A stretch of 64,000 nucleotides of DNA from Escherichia phage fEgEco12: the sequence record PP777464.1. One strand, given 5' to 3'. Shown piece after piece: positions 1,663 through 20,841 of the stretch (position 1 is its first letter; every line of letters begins with the position of its first letter). Both the position numbers and the translations under genes were made by a program. The notes under the pieces are model-generated. The model saw only the letters and a list, made by a program, of their open reading frames with translations, searched no databases and had not been told where the DNA came from.

Positions 1663-1690
1663 TTGCACCGTACTGATAAAAGCGTATAAT
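1663..1690 (+). promoter_or_regulatory. sigma70-like early promoter
   Basis: -35 TTGCAC, 16-nt spacer, -10 TATAAT; consensus AAAGTACTTGCAA..GCGTATAATGTTTTACATC recurs. Confidence 0.6.
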
Positions 1691-1703
1691 GTTTTACATC
1701 GAG

Positions 1704-1722
1704 AGCGGGAACACTTCCCGCT
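1704..1722 (+). promoter_or_regulatory. 5-prime UTR stem-loop
   Basis: AGCGGGA-acact-TCCCGCT between -10 box and RBS. Confidence 0.5.
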
Positions 1723-1745
1723 ACACATTAAGAGAGATTAAAACG

Positions 1746-2108
1746 ATGGCGACTCAAATCAATAAAATCATGCTTAACCTGGTAAACTTCCGCGATGAGA
1801 TGAAAGGTCTTCCGGCTGAAACTGTAAAAATTCACATTGCAGCTTATCGGGAACTTATTGCAATGTTGCCGCTTAAGCGTGAACAATACGCCGCTACTTT
1901 GATGCTGGATTCAATGATCCATATAATGATCTCAAATGATTTGACGATGGTTTATCAGTATATGGGCGAAAATTTCGCGGTGTGTAGTAAGCCAGTACCA
2001 GGGATGGCAACAACTGAGGAATTGCACGGCTTAAACTTAAAACAAGATGCATGGGATAATATGCCTCGTTTCCTGGTATGGGCTGACAGTGGCAAAATTT
2101 ACAAATAA
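1746..2108 (+). CDS. hypothetical early protein (120 aa)
   Basis: Promoter, UTR hairpin; track ORF 1689 begins inside the -10 box, first ATG after hairpin used. Confidence 0.65.
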   Translation: MATQINKIMLNLVNFRDEMKGLPAETVKIHIAAYRELIAMLPLKREQYAATLMLDSMIHIMISNDLTMVYQYMGENFAVCSKPVPGMATTEELHGLNLKQDAWDNMPRFLVWADSGKIYK

Positions 2109-2122
2109 GTTTAATAAAGTAC

Positions 2123-2150
2123 TTGCAAACTATGTTTAATGGCGTATAAT
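2123..2150 (+). promoter_or_regulatory. sigma70-like early promoter
   Basis: -35 TTGCAA, 16-nt spacer, -10 TATAAT, then GGGGAA-tag-TTCCCC hairpin. Confidence 0.6.
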
Positions 2151-2201
2151 GTTTTACATCAGGTGGGGAATAGTTCCCCCCTATATAAGAGGATTAAAAA
2201 A

Positions 2202-2441
2202 ATGGCTAAATCAAAAATGTTCTTAGGTCACAAAAACAAAACTCATTGGAATGTAAGCCTGTGGATTAATAACGATGAGGGATTGTATCGGTTGGCCCTG
2301 GACTTTATTGCCGCCAATACTAATCGCAATGATGCGGCCCGTCATATGATGTTATTTTTAGAACAGACTGGACAAGATAAAACACCGGACGGATTCAAAT
2401 ATAGCACTACTGCGATCCGTGCGGCGATGGTTGGAATGTAA
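2202..2441 (+). CDS. hypothetical early protein (79 aa)
   Basis: ATG 8 nt after GAGGA; upstream track start lies in promoter. Confidence 0.65.
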   Translation: MAKSKMFLGHKNKTHWNVSLWINNDEGLYRLALDFIAANTNRNDAARHMMLFLEQTGQDKTPDGFKYSTTAIRAAMVGM

Positions 2442-2527
2442 TAGAATTTATTTAAAGTACTATCATTTTTTTGCGATAGTACTTTATAATAGTGTTTTAT
2501 TCATACACCAACGATAAGGGCAACAGC

Positions 2528-2794
2528 ATGAATATTAAGTATTTTGCGACGCGTGAACAAGCTCGGATCGCCGCACGCCAGGACGGGGCAACGTTTAAAG
2601 ATATGGGCGTACAATCGGAACGTGGTAAACGTTGGGCCATTGTAAAGCGTAGTACCGCCAGATCATTACAGTACTGGTTAGCGGCCTTAAAAAGTCCCGA
2701 TAGTGTATCGCGTCGAGTGGTAGAAATAAAGCTCGACCGAAAGGGCAACCGCGTGACCGTGTACCGTACTAAAAAGATTGCAGTACTTGAATAA
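2528..2794 (+). CDS. hypothetical protein, paralog of 14846-15241
   Basis: Shared KYFATREQARIAARQDGATFKDMG and DRKGNRVTVY blocks. Confidence 0.65.
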   Translation: MNIKYFATREQARIAARQDGATFKDMGVQSERGKRWAIVKRSTARSLQYWLAALKSPDSVSRRVVEIKLDRKGNRVTVYRTKKIAVLE

Positions 2795-2801
2795 AAAGTA
2801 C

Positions 2802-2829
2802 TTGCAAACTATGTTTAAAGGCGTATAAT
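2802..2829 (+). promoter_or_regulatory. sigma70-like early promoter
   Basis: TTGCAA, 16 nt, TATAAT; followed by AGCGGGAAC/TTCCCGC hairpin. Confidence 0.6.
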
Positions 2830-2875
2830 GTTTTACATCGAGAGCGGGAACTCTTCCCGCCTATAACCTGGAGTA

Positions 2876-3112
2876 ATGAAAATGACTAATATGTATATGA
2901 CTGAAGTTAAAACCGTAAAAGATACTACCACGAATAAAACTACTTACTTACAGCGGATCTGTGGTGTATGGCAACGTATCAGCAAATCAAAGTACTTTAA
3001 ATTAACATCATATGCAAACCGTTCGGATTCATTCAGTACTGAAATAAAAGGTAATAAAGTACACCAATACGGCACTTATTATTATTATAGCCTGGACGCG
3101 ATTGCAGTATAA
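2876..3112 (+). CDS. hypothetical early protein
   Basis: ORF track; start 2876 or 2882, the latter better spaced from GGAG. Confidence 0.6.
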   Translation: MKMTNMYMTEVKTVKDTTTNKTTYLQRICGVWQRISKSKYFKLTSYANRSDSFSTEIKGNKVHQYGTYYYYSLDAIAV

Positions 3113-18577: not shown

Positions 18578-18644
18578 TAACTAAAACAAAGTATAATGTT
18601 TTGCATAGGGGGAGATATCCTCCCCCACTAAAAGGAGTAATAAA

Positions 18645-18869
18645 ATGGCTAACTTTGATGAACTGATGCGGGAAGTAGCTAACCTGGCAGAAGAGAAGAA
18701 ATCATTCGATTCTATCTATAACACCGCTCACCGTGATTCAGTACTGGCATGTAACCAGGATCAAAAAGATGAACTAATCGCCACCTATCATGAAGCATGG
18801 AAGTACTACCGACAATGGGAGAAAGAAGAAAGTGAGTCTACCATTGACGGCCTCAATAATCTAATCTAA
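18645..18869 (+). CDS. hypothetical protein (74 aa)
   Basis: ORF track; promoter, hairpin, RBS AAGGAG. Confidence 0.65.
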   Translation: MANFDELMREVANLAEEKKSFDSIYNTAHRDSVLACNQDQKDELIATYHEAWKYYRQWEKEESESTIDGLNNLI

Positions 18870-18945
18870 AAGTTTTATTTCAGTACTATTGACATAGCTT
18901 GATAGTACTGATGTAATAACTTTACTAACTACAAGGGGAAACATA

Positions 18946-19203
18946 ATGGATCAGTTCACACAATATCGGGTAAATCCACAAGCTATGGCCTACGTAGAAG
19001 ACCATAAAACGTTACCAGTACTGCAACCAGTTAAAGGCCATATCTATCGTGCAATGTCGTGGTGTACGGCCCAGGATGGCTATAAAACCGTAGCCGTGGG
19101 TATGTATTGCGGTGATGGTGAATGGTTTGATCCAAATAATCCGGTAGCCATTGACAGTACTGAAAAAATGAAATGGGCCGACTACATCGAAGATATTTCA
19201 TAA
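18946..19203 (+). CDS. hypothetical protein (85 aa)
   Basis: ORF track; subtype-2 promoter; RBS GGGGAAA. Confidence 0.6.
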   Translation: MDQFTQYRVNPQAMAYVEDHKTLPVLQPVKGHIYRAMSWCTAQDGYKTVAVGMYCGDGEWFDPNNPVAIDSTEKMKWADYIEDIS

Positions 19204-19293
19204 AAACTATTTGACAGTACTAACCAATAATGTATAATGTTTTACATAGAGCGGGGGAATAGTTCTCCCGCCAATAGTTTGGAGTAAAACATT

Positions 19294-19494
19294 ATGTCTA
19301 TCGCTATCGCCCTGGTTGAAGTACTGAAAGAAGCTAAAGCCAACCAGATCGACGTAAAGATCCAGGAACTACAAAACGGCTTAATCGGCTGTACTTGTAC
19401 CGCTGGTGGAGCGGCAGACTATCGAGAACACGAATCACTCGAATCACTGGTTCGGTATCTTACCATGATCGTTGATGATTGGAGAATCATCTAA
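19294..19494 (+). CDS. hypothetical protein (66 aa)
   Basis: ORF track; promoter, hairpin, RBS GGAG; internal Chi. Confidence 0.65.
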   Translation: MSIAIALVEVLKEAKANQIDVKIQELQNGLIGCTCTAGGAADYREHESLESLVRYLTMIVDDWRII

Positions 19495-19506
19495 CAAAAA
19501 AGAATA

Positions 19507-19640
19507 AAAAAAGGGATTGACTCCGGTCAGTCCCTTTGCTATTATATACGCATAGACAAAAACTAGCCCACAGGGTGCATAGGTGTATCCAAAATATATA
19601 GTTAATAACGGTGAGTAACTATCTGCTGGTGGAACTAAAA
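19507..19640 (+). repeat. Conserved intergenic module, copy 4
   Basis: TTGACTCCGGTCAG promoter and TAGCCCACAGGGTGCATAGGTGTATC box; Chi at 19625. Confidence 0.6.
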
Positions 19641-19739
19641 CTATTAATAAAAAAGTATTGACAAAGTATATCAGTACTGCAATAATGTATCTCGTAGGGC
19701 GGCAATGGTGCGACGGCCCACAAAGTTAGGAGATTCACC

Positions 19740-20072
19740 ATGAGTACTTCAATCGCTATCGTTAAAGCTTTCATCCGTACTAATGTTTCCTCTGTATTCA
19801 TCGACGGCCTCGACCGTAACGTAGAATACTCAATCATTATCGCACAAACGGCAAACGGTTCTCGGTACATCCTGAATGATAGTGAAGCAAATCACTACTA
19901 CTTCACTAAAGCCACTGGCTTTAAACGCATCGATGCTGATGTAGTATACGCTAAGATGAATAAGCTGGTAGATAAGATTAACGCTAAAGGTACTATAGAT
20001 TTACAGTACTGGACCGAAACCGATCCAGAGTATGGATCTCACCGCTACCTGAATCCAGGTATCAAAATGTAA
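19740..20072 (+). CDS. hypothetical protein (110 aa)
   Basis: ORF track; RBS AGGAG. Confidence 0.65.
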   Translation: MSTSIAIVKAFIRTNVSSVFIDGLDRNVEYSIIIAQTANGSRYILNDSEANHYYFTKATGFKRIDADVVYAKMNKLVDKINAKGTIDLQYWTETDPEYGSHRYLNPGIKM

Positions 20073-20161
20073 AAAGTACTTGCATAGTACTTAGATTCAT
20101 GTATAATGTTTTACATAGAGAGGGGGAAATGGTTCTCCCTCCTAAATTAAGGAGTTTTATC

Positions 20162-20563
20162 ATGACCTTCTCAATCACTTCCTTCGCTGACGTTTTAGTA
20201 CTGGCCCGGACTTTTGGTAAAGATGCACTGGAGTACGCTGTAAGTAATGGCACTATCCAACCGGAACAGTGCCGCATCATTGGAAACTGCAAACGTTGGG
20301 CGGTTTCCAATACTATTGCACTGGAAAACTTCCACGATGGCAACAATGAATATTCTGTTGATGTAGTATTCGAAGCCGTTGATCTCGGCGGTATCTATAA
20401 TACTAACCTGAATGATGTGCGTATCGTTCGCACTGGGTTCGGTGCTTATGATGTATCTATTCGTGAAGCTATGAACACCGGATACATTAGCAAGGACTTA
20501 CTTGCTCACATCATGCAGCTGTGTACGGAACGTAACGAAGCACGCACTATCTTAGGACTGTAA
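20162..20563 (+). CDS. hypothetical protein (133 aa)
   Basis: ATG after hairpin and RBS AAGGAG; track start in promoter. Confidence 0.65.
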   Translation: MTFSITSFADVLVLARTFGKDALEYAVSNGTIQPEQCRIIGNCKRWAVSNTIALENFHDGNNEYSVDVVFEAVDLGGIYNTNLNDVRIVRTGFGAYDVSIREAMNTGYISKDLLAHIMQLCTERNEARTILGL

Positions 20564-20631
20564 GCGTTACACATCACCAAACATCATAGGCCGCCTTGTA
20601 GCGGCCTTAACTATATCAGGAGTACATACAC

Positions 20632-20841
20632 ATGATCTATACAGTATACAACGTTCTAGGCACTATTGCAGGCGTACATGATAACGTCGATGGTGCTATG
20701 CGTACAGTACTGCAACAGGTTCCACTAAAGCCTAAGACCATTAAGCAGATGACAGCACGACTAACCAGGGCGACGGCTGGCGTGGAAGTATGGCAGGACT
20801 ATGGGGATACACAGATAATCGTAAGCGTAACGAAGGATTAA
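20632..20841 (+). CDS. hypothetical protein (69 aa)
   Basis: ORF track; RBS CAGGAG. Confidence 0.6.
   Translation: MIYTVYNVLGTIAGVHDNVDGAMRTVLQQVPLKPKTIKQMTARLTRATAGVEVWQDYGDTQIIVSVTKD

Follow-up and report, generated by a model that had tools for sequence, protein, structure and literature searches.

The terminal repeats of the phages SPO1 and T5 hold host-takeover or pre-early genes. Of the genes of the related jumbo phage PA5oct, those in the terminal repeat are transcribed most strongly 5 min after infection, from TTGAC/TATAATA promoters (10.1101/679506). In both CBB and PA5oct, RpoD-like promoters cluster in early or terminal-repeat regions. In T4-like phages, cassettes made of a promoter and a stem-loop (PeSLs) are known upstream of ORFans (PMC2839356, PMC4122927).

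The window analysed here is the whole 64,000-nt stretch from Escherichia phage fEgEco12 (PP777464.1). Its positions 1-20,993 are the long direct terminal repeat (DTR) of an Asteriusvirus jumbo myovirus (121Q/PBECO4/fEgEco12-like). By aligning the window to vB_Ec-M-J, we found that window position 1 matches the base with which the annotated right DTR copy of that phage begins, and that homology stops at 20993, the end of the vB_Ec-M-J record. Also, GC content drops from 38% to 30-35% past 22 kb. The published fEgEco12 DTR is 20,993 bp, as confirmed by PhageTerm and restriction digests (PMC13070987).

1-20993, no strand: DTR, containing the whole gene array (alignment to vB_Ec-M-J, published fEgEco12 DTR, GC shift)
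1-1660, no strand: terminal leader, non-coding; 16 AGTACT sites, iterons (809-915), promoters without an ORF on either strand

The array comprises 52 small ORFs on the + strand, whose measured length of 47-203 aa agrees with the 45-200 aa of the earlier note. Nearly all are mutually unrelated, with only two paralogue pairs among the 52, and the cassettes share a consensus while the ORFs behind them do not repeat. The only recognisable products are a GNAT acetyltransferase, a DksA/TraR zinc finger, a ParE-like domain, two DUFs and a weak kinase match, and the host-takeover role to which the earlier note pointed is putative for all ORFs.

Then, we searched for promoters with TTGACA or TTGCAA, a 16-18 nt spacer and TATAAT, requiring at least 10 of 12 matches. 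Between 1600 and 21000, 49 such sites were found on the + strand (44 of them intergenic) versus 10 on the - strand, and Markov simulations predict 9.3 +/- 3.1. All 12 perfect (12/12) sites are on the + strand, and none was found in the control region at 22-41 kb. The consensus AAAAAgTAcTTGcaA-N16-GTATAATgtTTTACATc is the one already proposed, and AGTACT palindromes flank the -35 and -10 of the cassettes. A promoter for almost every gene had been claimed: the enrichment is clear, but 37 of the 52 ORFs have their own promoter (24-25 in class A and about 12 in class B, described below) and about 10 have none. Likewise, the figure of about 50 cassettes holds only as a count of promoters. Together these data support reading the block as a DTR-filling array of small ORFans preceded by host-RNA-polymerase-type promoters. 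The cassettes are probably read by the host sigma70 RNA polymerase, and their genes probably expressed early.

The earlier note also described a perfect stem-loop in front of almost every gene. The hairpin exists, but a 7-9 bp stem is present in front of only 24 ORFs (class A), or 25 including a divergent one at 19681. In fixed order, a class A cassette consists of an A-tract, AGTAC, a -35 (TTGCAA or TTGACA), a 16-nt spacer, TATAAT and GTTTTACATC, followed by the G-rich/C-rich hairpin, about 10 nt, a Shine-Dalgarno (SD) site and ATG; the regulatory cassettes are about 90 bp long. The stem begins 13.2 +/- 1.4 nt past the -10 hexamer and lies 20.0 +/- 2.1 nt before the ATG. If the A of CATC is the start, it spans about +6 to near +25, as had been claimed. 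The class A cassettes and the genes attached to them are as follows.

1651-1745, +: -35 TTGCAC 1663, -10 TATAAT 1685, hairpin 1704-1722; ORF 1746-2108 (120 aa)
2111-2201, +: -35 2123, -10 2145, hairpin 2165-2179; ORF 2202-2441 (79 aa)
2790-2881, +: -35 2802, -10 2824, hairpin 2844-2860; ORF 2882-3112 (76 aa)
4152-4243, +: -10 4186, hairpin 4205-4223; ORF 4244-4408 (54 aa), presence varies in relatives, breakpoints 4246 and 4400
4407-4496, +: -10 4441, hairpin 4459-4478; ORF 4497-4718 (73 aa)
4876-4962, +: -10 4910, hairpin 4924-4943; ORF 4963-5199 (78 aa)
5193-5283, +: -10 5227, hairpin 5246-5264; ORF 5284-5583 (99 aa), then ORF 5605-5835 without its own promoter
7274-7362, +: -10 7308, hairpin 7326-7345; ORF 7363-7506 (47 aa)
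8787-8877, +: -10 8821, hairpin 8839-8858; ORF 8878-9024 (48 aa), presence varies in relatives, breakpoints 8860 and 9017
9016-9105, +: -10 9050, hairpin 9068-9087; ORF 9106-9258 (50 aa), then promoterless ORF 9345-9488
9608-9698, +: -10 9642, hairpin 9661-9679; ORF 9699-10040 (113 aa)
10043-10136, +: -10 10077, hairpin 10095-10114; ORF 10137-10349 (70 aa)
12148-12234, +: 17-nt spacer, TATAGT, hairpin 12199-12217; ORF 12235-12423
12451-12774, +: promoterless ORF (DUF7247) after ORF 12235-12423, presence varies in relatives, breakpoints 12423 and 12773
12769-12857, +: -10 12803, hairpin 12821-12840; ORF 12858-13070 (70 aa)
13067-13157, +: -10 13101, hairpin 13120-13136; ORF 13158-13331, its end overlapped by promoterless ORF 13328-13477
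14060-14156, +: hairpin 14114-14133; ORF 14157-14339 (60 aa), presence varies in relatives, breakpoints 14163 and 14328
14331-14426, +: near-identical to cassette 14060-14156, hairpin 14385-14403; ORF 14427-14750 (107 aa)
16876-16966, +: hairpin 16929-16947 with a G.U pair; ORF 16967-17188 (73 aa)
17180-17271, +: hairpin 17232-17250; ORF 17272-17676 (134 aa), missing in 4 of 5 relatives, breakpoints 17283 and 17677
17671-17765, +: hairpin 17723-17741; ORF 17766-18038, its end overlapped by promoterless ORF 18035-18226
18222-18313, +: hairpin 18274-18295; ORF 18314-18577 (87 aa), breakpoints 18284 and 18561
18558-18644, +: hairpin 18608-18626, GGGGGAG/CUCCCCC, a compensatory G-C replacing the usual A-U; ORF 18645-18869 (74 aa)
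19199-19293, +: hairpin 19251-19271; ORF 19294-19494 (66 aa)
19646-19739, +: promoter TTGACA-17-AATAAT, divergent GC-rich leader hairpin (GGCGGC/GCCGCC stem in the A5-4 homologue); ORF 19740-20072
20068-20161, +: hairpin 20120-20141; ORF 20162-20563 (133 aa), then promoterless ORF 20632-20841

In about 12 genes (class B), a TTGACA promoter, frequently one whose -10 is extended (TGnCATAAT), is followed by a short leader without structure and with a fold energy of about 0 to -1 kcal/mol. They are given here with the other genes that lack a class A hairpin or a promoter.

3468-3539, +: class B, TTGACA-16-TATAAT, short open leader (-1.1 kcal/mol); ORF 3540-4151 (203 aa)
5906-6068, +: promoter and D-like structured leader of 123 nt; ORF 6069-6551
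6742-6826, +: hairpin-free promoter; ORF 6827-6979, presence varies in relatives
6976-7049, +: class B, TTGACA-17-TGgCATAAT; ORF 7050-7277
7514-7595, +: class B; ORF 7596-7919
8000-8808, +: ORFs 8000-8269, 8321-8593 and 8599-8808, the sole promoter being weak (9/12) at 7948
10357-10432, +: class B; ORF 10433-10612
10619-10702, +: class B; ORF 10703-10846
11479-11736: ORF, DksA/TraR zinc finger, upstream of the GNAT ORF
11731-11799, +: hairpin-free promoter; ORF 11800-12156 (GNAT acetyltransferase)
13720-13792, +: class B; ORF 13793-14068
14761-14845, +: 12/12 promoter without hairpin; ORF 14846-15241
15303-15557: ORF with ParE-like domain, no own promoter, hairpin 15264-15282 (below) just upstream
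15542-15610, +: promoter TTGACA-17-TACTAT; ORF 15611-15829, presence varies in relatives
15818-15886, +: repeat of the preceding promoter; ORF 15887-16129, then ORF 16161-16745 (weak kinase match)

Cassettes without an ORF, as the earlier note had observed, do occur (nine on the + strand and at least three on the - strand); beyond the promoters of the ORFs, about 11 drive ORF-less units of two conserved families. These cassettes are not empty: they drive a CCCAYNGGGTGC-core unit (C) and a leader RNA, Y-shaped and about 80 nt long (D). The D-unit copy at 13604-13730 is found in 44 phage records, with 88-94% identity in Vequintavirinae and Justusliebigvirus. Both families are listed with the terminator-like hairpins of the array.

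1077-1170, -: C-unit, ORF-less, within the terminal leader
3143-3230, +: C-unit, ORF-less, promoter and core CCCATAGGGTGC at 3197, convergent with the next unit
3232-3315, -: C-unit, ORF-less, TTGACA-17-CATAAT, core 3265
3350-3478, +: D-unit, ORF-less, class A-type promoter and Y-shaped RNA of about 83 nt, ORF 3540's class B promoter directly next
4723-4745, no strand: intrinsic-terminator-like hairpin, bidirectional
4763-4853, -: C-unit, ORF-less, heading toward terminator 4723-4745
5842-5858, +: intrinsic-terminator-like hairpin and T-run
6573-6594, +: intrinsic-terminator-like hairpin and T-run
9491-9586, +: class C unit, 12-bp terminator-like hairpin holding the -35 (TTGACT), extended -10 TATTAT, core 9553
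11154-11244, +: C-unit, ORF-less, TTGACA-17-CATAAT, core 11211
13489-13579, +: class C unit, terminator/promoter hairpin 13489-13516, core 13546
13604-13730, +: D-unit, second copy, ORF-less, fold z = -3.4
15264-15282, no strand: terminator-like hairpin GGCGGGAtcagTTCCCGCC and T-run
16758-16853, +: class C unit, hairpin 16758-16785, core 16820
19510-19600, +: class C unit, hairpin 19510-19537, core 19567

A class A-type stem is expected by chance in 3.2% of shuffled leaders. Among promoter-like matches, we found it in 24 of 49 inside the DTR versus 0 of 45 outside (p = 4.6e-9). A covariance model gave about 24 matches on the + strand, all in leader positions between 2.1 and 20.2 kb, with scores about 15-19 bits lower on the - strand and no match past 21 kb at E-value < 0.5. 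In the window and three relatives (60 unique cassettes, 40 distinct hairpins), the pairs include 29 G.U (G.T) wobbles, no A.C and one mismatch, with double changes at five of the nine stem pairs. The covariation score is 0.392 versus 0.219 in shuffles (0/500) and at most 0.18 with partners slid, for cassettes that share descent and a structure derived from the same sequences. Between orthologues, identity reaches 95.2% in stems, 89.3% at third codon positions and 85.5% in loops. The predicted fold energy is -12 to -16 kcal/mol, with SD and AUG unpaired, and none of the 24 hairpins was listed in a terminator scan or is followed by a T-run (U-tract). Because the signal is strand-specific, changes are compensatory, stems are the most conserved part, a U-tract is missing and the ribosome-binding site is open, the hairpin, judged from these alignments, acts in the mRNA leader and not in DNA. 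Loops of 3-5 nt vary freely in sequence and length; stem polarity is constant in all versions and across genera, with a purine-rich 5' arm and two A-U closing pairs. This constancy exceeds what stability alone demands; possible causes are recognition of a specific sequence, concerted evolution or an initial transcribed region rich in purines.

As a whole, we think it rather probable that the DTR is an array of mostly unrelated ORFs in a few reusable cassettes, with leader hairpins acting in RNA and cassettes serving as recombination junctions. Most ORFs would be plugged into one of few cassette types read by host sigma70 RNA polymerase. The hairpin is most likely an mRNA stabiliser or insulator, not a terminator; our leading but tentative reading, given slightly less than even chances, is a leader module that shields early mRNA, in its 5' part, against decay that depends on the 5' end. 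The module would also leave the ribosome-binding site accessible regardless of the downstream ORF, so that a captured ORF could be strongly expressed at once. According to work of the Belasco lab on ompA, 5' stem-loops reportedly give the best protection when at most 2-4 unpaired nt are present. With the A of CATC as the transcription start, the stem is preceded by 5-7 unpaired nt, which makes it uncertain that the role is purely one of 5'-end protection. About half of the genes manage without the hairpin, which also counts against the overall reading.

Among the alternatives, joint control is the least improbable, although we consider it unlikely: the hairpin would be recognised by an RNA-binding protein or nuclease, of phage or host origin, that turns early mRNAs on or off jointly, for instance by repressing their translation or targeting them for decay when the early phase gives way to the middle one. 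Its fixed leader position fits this, as do the G-rich 5' arm and invariant A-U, A-U, G-C closing pairs in 40 distinct hairpins and in a Klebsiella phage. T4 RegB, which inactivates early mRNAs at intergenic GGAG (PMC3014915), offers a precedent, and GGAG occurs in many 5' arms. Against it, no site class is less conserved than the variable loops, the element is missing from half of the early genes, and a candidate binding protein was not found. Terminators or attenuators that insulate each gene from read-through of strong upstream promoters, as proposed for PeSLs, are less probable still. Among PeSL stem-loops, which pair a G-run with a C-run, one lowered lacZ expression as much as rrnB T1 (PMC2839356), and the hairpin at 15264-15282, of like sequence type, does have a T-run. 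Against this, the class A hairpins lack one, and the array has separate terminator-like hairpins (4723, 5842, 6573, 15264 and class C). Moreover, since each stem follows the start site of the promoter it belongs to, a terminator there would also stop that promoter's transcript at about +25.

An operator role of the inverted repeat in DNA, with a dimeric repressor shutting off the early promoters from there, seems very improbable, even if a site at +6 to +25 could block elongation or promoter escape and AGTACT palindromes also surround the -35 and -10. Wobbles as G.T and never A.C indicate that pairing holds on the + strand only, and the lower - strand scores, the arm spacing varying from 3 to 5 nt, and compensatory substitutions without a fixed half-site already disfavour it. 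Least credible of all is a functionless leader whose regularity is a by-product of recent tandem duplication of gene and promoter units. Neighbouring cassettes are indeed near-identical at 14094/14365, 17214/17705 and 8821/9050, but the paralogue count already speaks against it, third codon positions are less conserved than stems, and cassettes are kept in a different genus with mostly different DTR genes.

With regard to cassettes as junctions, comparison with five relatives placed 18 of 40 unique homology breakpoints inside cassettes, which make up 19% of the region (p = 2e-4), and 28 of 40 within 25 nt of one (p = 4e-7). At least nine whole-gene indels have flanking cassettes, and both ends of gene-sized insertions or deletions among relatives fall in cassettes. 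The repeated cassettes probably serve as homologous recombination junctions at which relatives gain, lose and swap whole genes, as at PeSLs.

The genus-crossing case is the Klebsiella jumbo phage fENko-Kae01, whose PhageTerm-defined DTR is filled with matching architecture. The modules also occur in Vequintavirinae and in rV5-like and phi92-like coliphages. The earlier observation was real but overstated. The density and regularity it called unusual are ordinary for such a region, to judge by the T4-like PeSLs and the CBB and PA5oct regions, and only half of the genes bear a hairpin. As in the PeSLs of T4-like phages, indel junctions here lie at the cassettes; reusable promoter-leader cassettes are an already known design of phage early genes, and the novelty is the position of the hairpin.

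The promoter array occupies the long direct terminal repeat (DTR) of an Asteriusvirus jumbo myovirus. By using positions 1600-9600 as a megablast query, we matched 114 phage records, nearly all of them E. coli jumbo phages of 350-386 kb classified as Asteriusvirus (including 121Q, PBECO4, SP27 and CRJP21), with a mosaic coverage of 40-98% in 4-12 pieces. In the record of vB_Ec-M-J, positions 1-21525 are annotated as “Direct Terminal Repeats”. Window position 1 corresponds to the base with which the right-hand copy of this repeat begins, and the alignment ends with the last base of that record, at window position 20,993. 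A direct terminal repeat of 20,993 bp was confirmed in fEgEco12 by PhageTerm and restriction digests (PMC13070987). Together, the alignment and the published value identify window 1-20,993 as the DTR and 1663-20841 as its coding part, so that the array belongs to a direct terminal repeat, as terminal-repeat early modules do. GC content drops from about 38% to 30-35% from about 22 kb on.

Between 1746 and 20841 we called 52 ORFs of 47-203 aa, all on the + strand, a few of which had Pfam matches:

11479-11736, + strand, DksA/TraR zinc finger
11800-12156, + strand, GNAT acetyltransferase
12451-12774, + strand, DUF7247
15303-15557, + strand, ParE-like toxin domain in an 84-aa ORF (E = 6e-11)
16161-16745, + strand, sub-threshold kinase match
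one DTR ORF, + strand, DUF7249

All the other DTR ORFs were assigned to PHROGs of unknown function, and no tRNA or tmRNA was found. The ParE-like ORF comes directly after a terminator-like hairpin (15264-15557 region) and lacks a promoter of its own. Judging from the promoter type, the DTR location and the transcriptome of phage PA5oct, we infer that the array would be expressed early and would take part in host takeover.

The regions on both sides of the array are organized differently. The genome end (1-1660) is non-coding and contains 16 AGTACT sites, ORF-less promoters on both strands and, at 809-915, iterons of 8 and 16 nt (CTGGATGG and CTAGACGG); its function may lie in packaging, replication or end protection. 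Right after the DTR (20994-64000), the gene layout switches to tightly packed, overlapping ORFs without individual promoters. This part holds tandem paralogue arrays; one family has 28 members (21091-42757), and several others have 3-6 members with ORFs of about 100-210 aa. A search beyond the DTR with a motif regex for the paralogue family gave no matches, and the family was recovered by all-against-all blastp instead.

We then scanned for promoters having TTGACA or TTGCAA, a spacer of 16-18 nt, at least 5/6 of TATAAT and at least 10/12 matches overall, and obtained the following counts:

1600-21000, + strand, 49 promoter sites
1600-21000, - strand, 10 promoter sites
first-order Markov simulations, 9.3 +/- 3.1 promoter sites

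The array of promoters described in the earlier note is thus borne out by the excess on the + strand (49 sites against 9.3 +/- 3.1 simulated). A consensus scanner also returned 102 sites where 65 +/- 6 were expected, twelve of them perfect (12/12) and exclusively on the + strand, while the control region at 22-41 kb gave 108 sites against 111 expected and no perfect one. The same note had proposed that almost every gene has a promoter followed by a hairpin. For the promoter this holds loosely, since 37 of the 52 DTR ORFs have their own (at least 10/12 matches), but the hairpin is limited to 24-25 of the 52. Specifically, 24 ORFs have a promoter and a leader hairpin of 7-9 bp, and a 25th (19681) has a divergent GC-rich stem; we refer to these as class A. 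About 12 ORFs have a promoter followed by a short, structure-free leader (class B), and about 10 lack an individual promoter and lie close behind, or overlap, the preceding gene. A 16-nt spacer is present in 23 class A promoters, whose consensus, AAAAAgTAcTTGcaA-N16-GTATAATgtTTTACATc, is the one the earlier note had read from the sequence. Its cassettes without an ORF are present as well, in two conserved families named C-units and D-units.

Two short motifs have unusual frequencies in this DNA. AGTACT, the core of the palindrome TCAGTACTGA, is found in 256 copies in window 1-64000. Within the DTR, no other hexamer is as strongly over-represented (121 copies vs 6.2 expected); outside, it ranks second behind the overlapping CAGTAC (118 vs 14.4) and also occurs within genes. 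In the cassettes it sits at fixed places (AAAGTAC-TTGCAA and cAGTACTG-TATAAT), and it may serve as a site of binding or modification. Conversely, among the A/T 7-mers of window 1-64000, depletion is strongest for ATAAATA (1 copy, 32 expected) and its complement TATTTAT (0 copies, 20 expected). ATAAATA has been proposed as the late-promoter motif of the related phages CBB and GAP32 (PMC5259590); given this depletion, all 64 kb seem to be purged of late promoters on both strands.

The class A stem has a fixed place in the leader: it starts 13.2 +/- 1.4 nt past the -10 hexamer and ends 20.0 +/- 2.1 nt ahead of the ATG. A comparable stem was found in 3.2% of shuffled leaders. It accompanies 24 of the 49 promoter-like sites inside the DTR and none of the 45 outside (p = 4.6e-9), and it is tied to the 16-nt spacer class (23/29 vs 1/8, p = 0.001). 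For its structure we collected 60 unique cassettes with 40 distinct hairpins from the window and from the good-quality relatives CRJP21, 121Q and UE-S1. The best megablast match, CMSTMSU (MH494197.1), was left out of the structure and breakpoint counts because of single-base losses in the hairpin G-runs and its UNVERIFIED_ORG flag; with its fragmented gene calls, it looks like a homopolymer-error assembly unfit for fine comparisons. The 40 hairpins have stems of 7-9 bp and loops of 3-5 nt, and the pairing tally gave 29 G.T wobbles, one mismatch and no A.C. This asymmetry indicates that the hairpin is neither a DNA palindrome nor a structure of both strands. Its polarity is the same in every version, including that of the Klebsiella phage, with a purine-rich 5' arm and A-U plus A-U closing pairs.

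Alignment of 69 whole leaders with MAFFT and RNAalifold produced a weak consensus (-1.8 kcal/mol), as stems and loops of unequal length fell out of register, and this approach was replaced by the hairpin-anchored count, an equal-length seed alignment and a covariance model. In 19 distinct equal-length hairpins, for which vB_Ec-M-J, SP27, fENko-Kae01 and A5-4 were added, the eight inner pairs are essentially always paired, and five of all nine pairs show two-sided changes. The covariation score was 0.392 against 0.219 +/- 0.026 for shuffled alignments (0/500 as high) and at most 0.18 with slid partners, figures that are biased toward the proposed structure since it was derived from the same, related sequences. 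An unfiltered search of the whole 64 kb with the covariance model built from the hairpin seeds returned about 24 matches on the + strand, every one at a leader position between 2.1 and 20.2 kb, scored about 15-19 bits lower on the reverse strand and had no match with an E-value < 0.5 beyond 21 kb. Orthologous alignments with five relatives gave these identities:

-10 hexamer, 98.1%
-35 hexamer, 95.4%
stems, 95.2%
third codon positions, 89.3%
loops, 85.5%

This pattern suggests that selection acts on the class A stem and not on the loop. Class A leaders are predicted to fold at -12 to -16 kcal/mol (z -1.7 to -4.7) with the Shine-Dalgarno site and the AUG unpaired, and class B leaders at 0 to -1 kcal/mol. 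Intrinsic terminators consist of a GC-rich hairpin followed directly by a U-run. No T-run follows the class A hairpins, and none of them appeared among the terminator-like sites of a terminator scan; separate terminator-like hairpins were found at 4723, 5842, 6573 and 15264 and in the class C units (four of the C-units described below). The missing U-tract and the strand-specific G.U pairing thus point to a leader element of the mRNA rather than an intrinsic terminator. An Rfam scan of 1-24000 with an E-value threshold returned two matches at chance level (Trp leader and S15 leader, E ~0.8) and none to the C- or D-units, which places the hairpin and both ORF-less elements outside known RNA families.

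The C-units are ten ORF-less copies, six on the + and four on the - strand, all within the DTR:

3197, + strand, C-unit core
9553, + strand, C-unit core
11211, + strand, C-unit core
13546, + strand, C-unit core
16820, + strand, C-unit core
19567, + strand, C-unit core
1110, - strand, C-unit with invariant core
3265, - strand, C-unit with invariant core
4796, - strand, C-unit with invariant core
1319-1329, - strand, weaker variant of the C-unit

Each has a sigma70 promoter, 22-28 nt and then the invariant core CTA(A/G)CCCAYNGGGTGC, in which the third loop position is free. This core is kept in at least 6 units of Klebsiella phage fENko-Kae01. Four of the + strand units, here called class C, have the -35 inside a 12-bp terminator-like hairpin, AAAGGGATTGACtccgGTCAGTCCCTTT, as is classical for the promoter-early stem-loop (PeSL) cassettes that T4-like phages carry. 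Folding of single units made an extended hairpin around the core (AGATA/TATCT and similar) seem plausible, but it was dropped, as duplexes between a unit's own flanks were no better than those across units (-5.85 vs -5.22 kcal/mol, p = 0.13). Two units, 3143-3230 (+) and 3232-3315 (-), are convergent, with -10 boxes at 3166 (+) and 3287 (-) and promoters about 120 bp apart. This pair would produce overlapping antisense RNAs, each with the CCCAYNGGGTGC core.

The D-units comprise two ORF-less copies and a variant:

3350-3478, + strand, D-unit, copy 1
13604-13730, + strand, D-unit, copy 2
upstream of 6069, + strand, D-unit variant, the 123-nt leader of ORF 6069

A class A-type promoter is followed by about 80 nt with a predicted Y-shaped fold (z -3.4 to -3.9); the RNA contains a UAAGNCNNACGAAA loop and, at its junction, UAAGUAG. 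In the ORF 6069 variant, AUCAAG/CUUUGAU takes the place of the closing stem AUCAGG/CCUGAU, and the version of the Klebsiella phage has the same predicted shape made of different helices. We found the D-unit in 44 phage records, mostly unannotated, with two copies per Asteriusvirus DTR and one, at 88-94% identity, in Vequintavirinae/Justusliebigvirus. In A5-4, the one Vequintavirinae relative checked, the genes beside it are just 71-78% identical. An IMG/VR scan for variants yielded only 121Q, one 366-kb contig and one chance match, and hence no added diversity. Because a class B promoter comes directly after each D-unit, it may be an alternative long leader and not a free small RNA.

By all-against-all blastp, only two paralogue pairs were found in the DTR (2528/14837 and 7596/14427), the other cassette ORFs being unrelated. 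Comparison with five relatives gave 40 unique homology breakpoints, nearly all about 30 nt or less from a gene start or stop. Eighteen of them fall inside cassettes, which make up 19.3% of the region (p = 2e-4), and 28 lie at most 25 nt from a cassette (31% expected, p = 4e-7). At eight places, an entire gene bounded by cassettes is found in some genomes and missing from others, in line with cassettes serving as recombination junctions:

4244-4408, + strand, whole gene present/absent
6827-6979, + strand, whole gene present/absent
8878-9024, + strand, whole gene present/absent
12451-12774, + strand, whole gene present/absent
14157-14339, + strand, whole gene present/absent
15611-15829, + strand, whole gene present/absent
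17272-17676, + strand, whole gene present/absent
18314-18577, + strand, whole gene present/absent

The cassette occurs in 9-30 copies per Asteriusvirus record, in other Rak2-like genera (Salmonella phages Munch, 7t3 and SE_PL, and Klebsiella phage fENko-Kae01) and as single clusters in coliphages of 137-151 kb. The PhageTerm-defined DTR of fENko-Kae01 (OR228459.1, 1-19736) carries class A, B and C cassettes before largely different genes; the genome-wide ANI of this phage to fEgEco12 is only about 29%. Also, several homologous small genes are reordered in the Vequintavirinae phage A5-4, each together with its cassette.

Regarding the role of the class A leader, E. coli mRNAs can be stabilised by 5' stem-loops. 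RNase E is a major actor in the turnover of T4 early mRNA (PMC3014915). Most likely, the leader would be a portable module against 5'-end-dependent decay, shielding the 5' part of early mRNAs, in which the local stem would sequester G-rich and C-rich segments and so leave the ribosome-binding site open for any ORF that follows. The start predicted at the A of CATC leaves 5-7 unpaired nt ahead of the stem, which, together with the fixed stem polarity, disfavours the simple version of 5'-end protection. Both features keep alive a rival explanation, a common RNA-binding factor; the freely varying loops speak against a protein that reads the loop. N4-type hairpin promoters and non-host transcription of the chimallivirus type were set aside because the phage is Rak2-like and its promoters are plain sigma70 consensus sequences. 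Beyond the shielding module, it is conceivable, if rather doubtful, that three previously undescribed RNA elements, the polarity-fixed 5' hairpin, the Y-shaped D-unit RNA and the C-units, form a set of phage-encoded early regulatory RNAs travelling with the cassettes between unrelated coliphages; the hairpin would then mark about half of the early mRNAs for shared post-transcriptional handling. The ORF-less C- and D-units and the fixed hairpin polarity are the newest parts of the array.

In the genome papers cited here, the repeat appears as a series of hypothetical proteins; the present analysis supplies names and coordinates for the regulatory grammar of the Asteriusvirus/Rak2-like terminal repeat. 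If the class A leader stabilises and insulates mRNAs, it would be a natural plug-and-play E. coli expression cassette that could serve phage engineering and the screening of early ORFans for toxicity. The positions of the breakpoints show how small early genes are exchanged among these phages and unrelated coliphages, which bears on host range and anti-defence repertoires. Both conserved ORF-less units are concrete candidates for leader elements or small RNAs of the phage.

Early arrays in long terminal repeats include the SPO1 host-takeover module and the T5 pre-early region. PA5oct has a 39-kb DTR with 105 genes expressed early by RNA-seq (10.1101/679506), and CBB a 22-kb repeat with RpoD-like promoters (PMC5259590). 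All four resemble the present array in having a terminal repeat full of small genes of unknown function, on one strand and with host-type promoters; early expression was shown in PA5oct, and for the present array immediate transcription by host RNA polymerase is predicted from the promoter sequences. The cited publications on PA5oct and CBB report neither a conserved leader hairpin nor the two ORF-less families, and the genome papers of fEgEco12 (PMC13070987) and fENko-Kae01 mention no promoters.

Among single leader elements, the E. coli ompA hairpin is reportedly a 5'-terminal stem-loop stabilising the mRNA (Emory, Bouvet and Belasco are said to have described it in 1992). Class A leaders share with it a stable hairpin near the mRNA 5' end, ahead of an open ribosome-binding site, but the roughly 5-7 unpaired nt predicted before their stem exceed the optimum for that mechanism. 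The nut boxB of lambdoid phages is likewise a short hairpin in an early leader, shortly after an early promoter. It works through a conserved loop to which the N protein binds, whereas class A loops are the most variable part, each gene has its own hairpin and a boxA-like element is absent.

The closest likeness is to PeSLs, the mobile regulatory cassettes of the T4-like phages RB49/phi1, PST/T4 and nt-1/KVP40 (PMC2839356, PMC4122927). As in those, a strong, near-consensus sigma70 promoter with an AT-rich upstream tract is combined with a G-run/C-rich stem-loop and a Shine-Dalgarno site, about 50 times over. The cassettes cluster in a hyperplastic region, directly before ORFans, and among close relatives they bound gene-sized indels and replacements (p = 2e-4 and 4e-7). 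Class C units, with their -35-bearing hairpin followed by T-rich sequence, have the commonest PeSL layout and a terminator-like form. For PeSLs, the stem-loop is proposed to act as a terminator or attenuator, and encapsidated mini-circles arise when adjacent cassettes recombine. In contrast, the class A stem-loop lies past the start site, within the 5' UTR, lacks a T-run and has strand-specific G.U pairs; a stem-loop before the transcription start is found only in the four class C units. Also, the array fills a DTR with fixed ends, whereas PeSLs occupy internal hyperplastic regions of a circularly permuted genome. Taking promoter, location and indels together with the shifted class A position, the sequence comparison thus suggests that the array works like PeSL-type mobile regulatory cassettes whose main stem-loop has moved into the transcribed leader.
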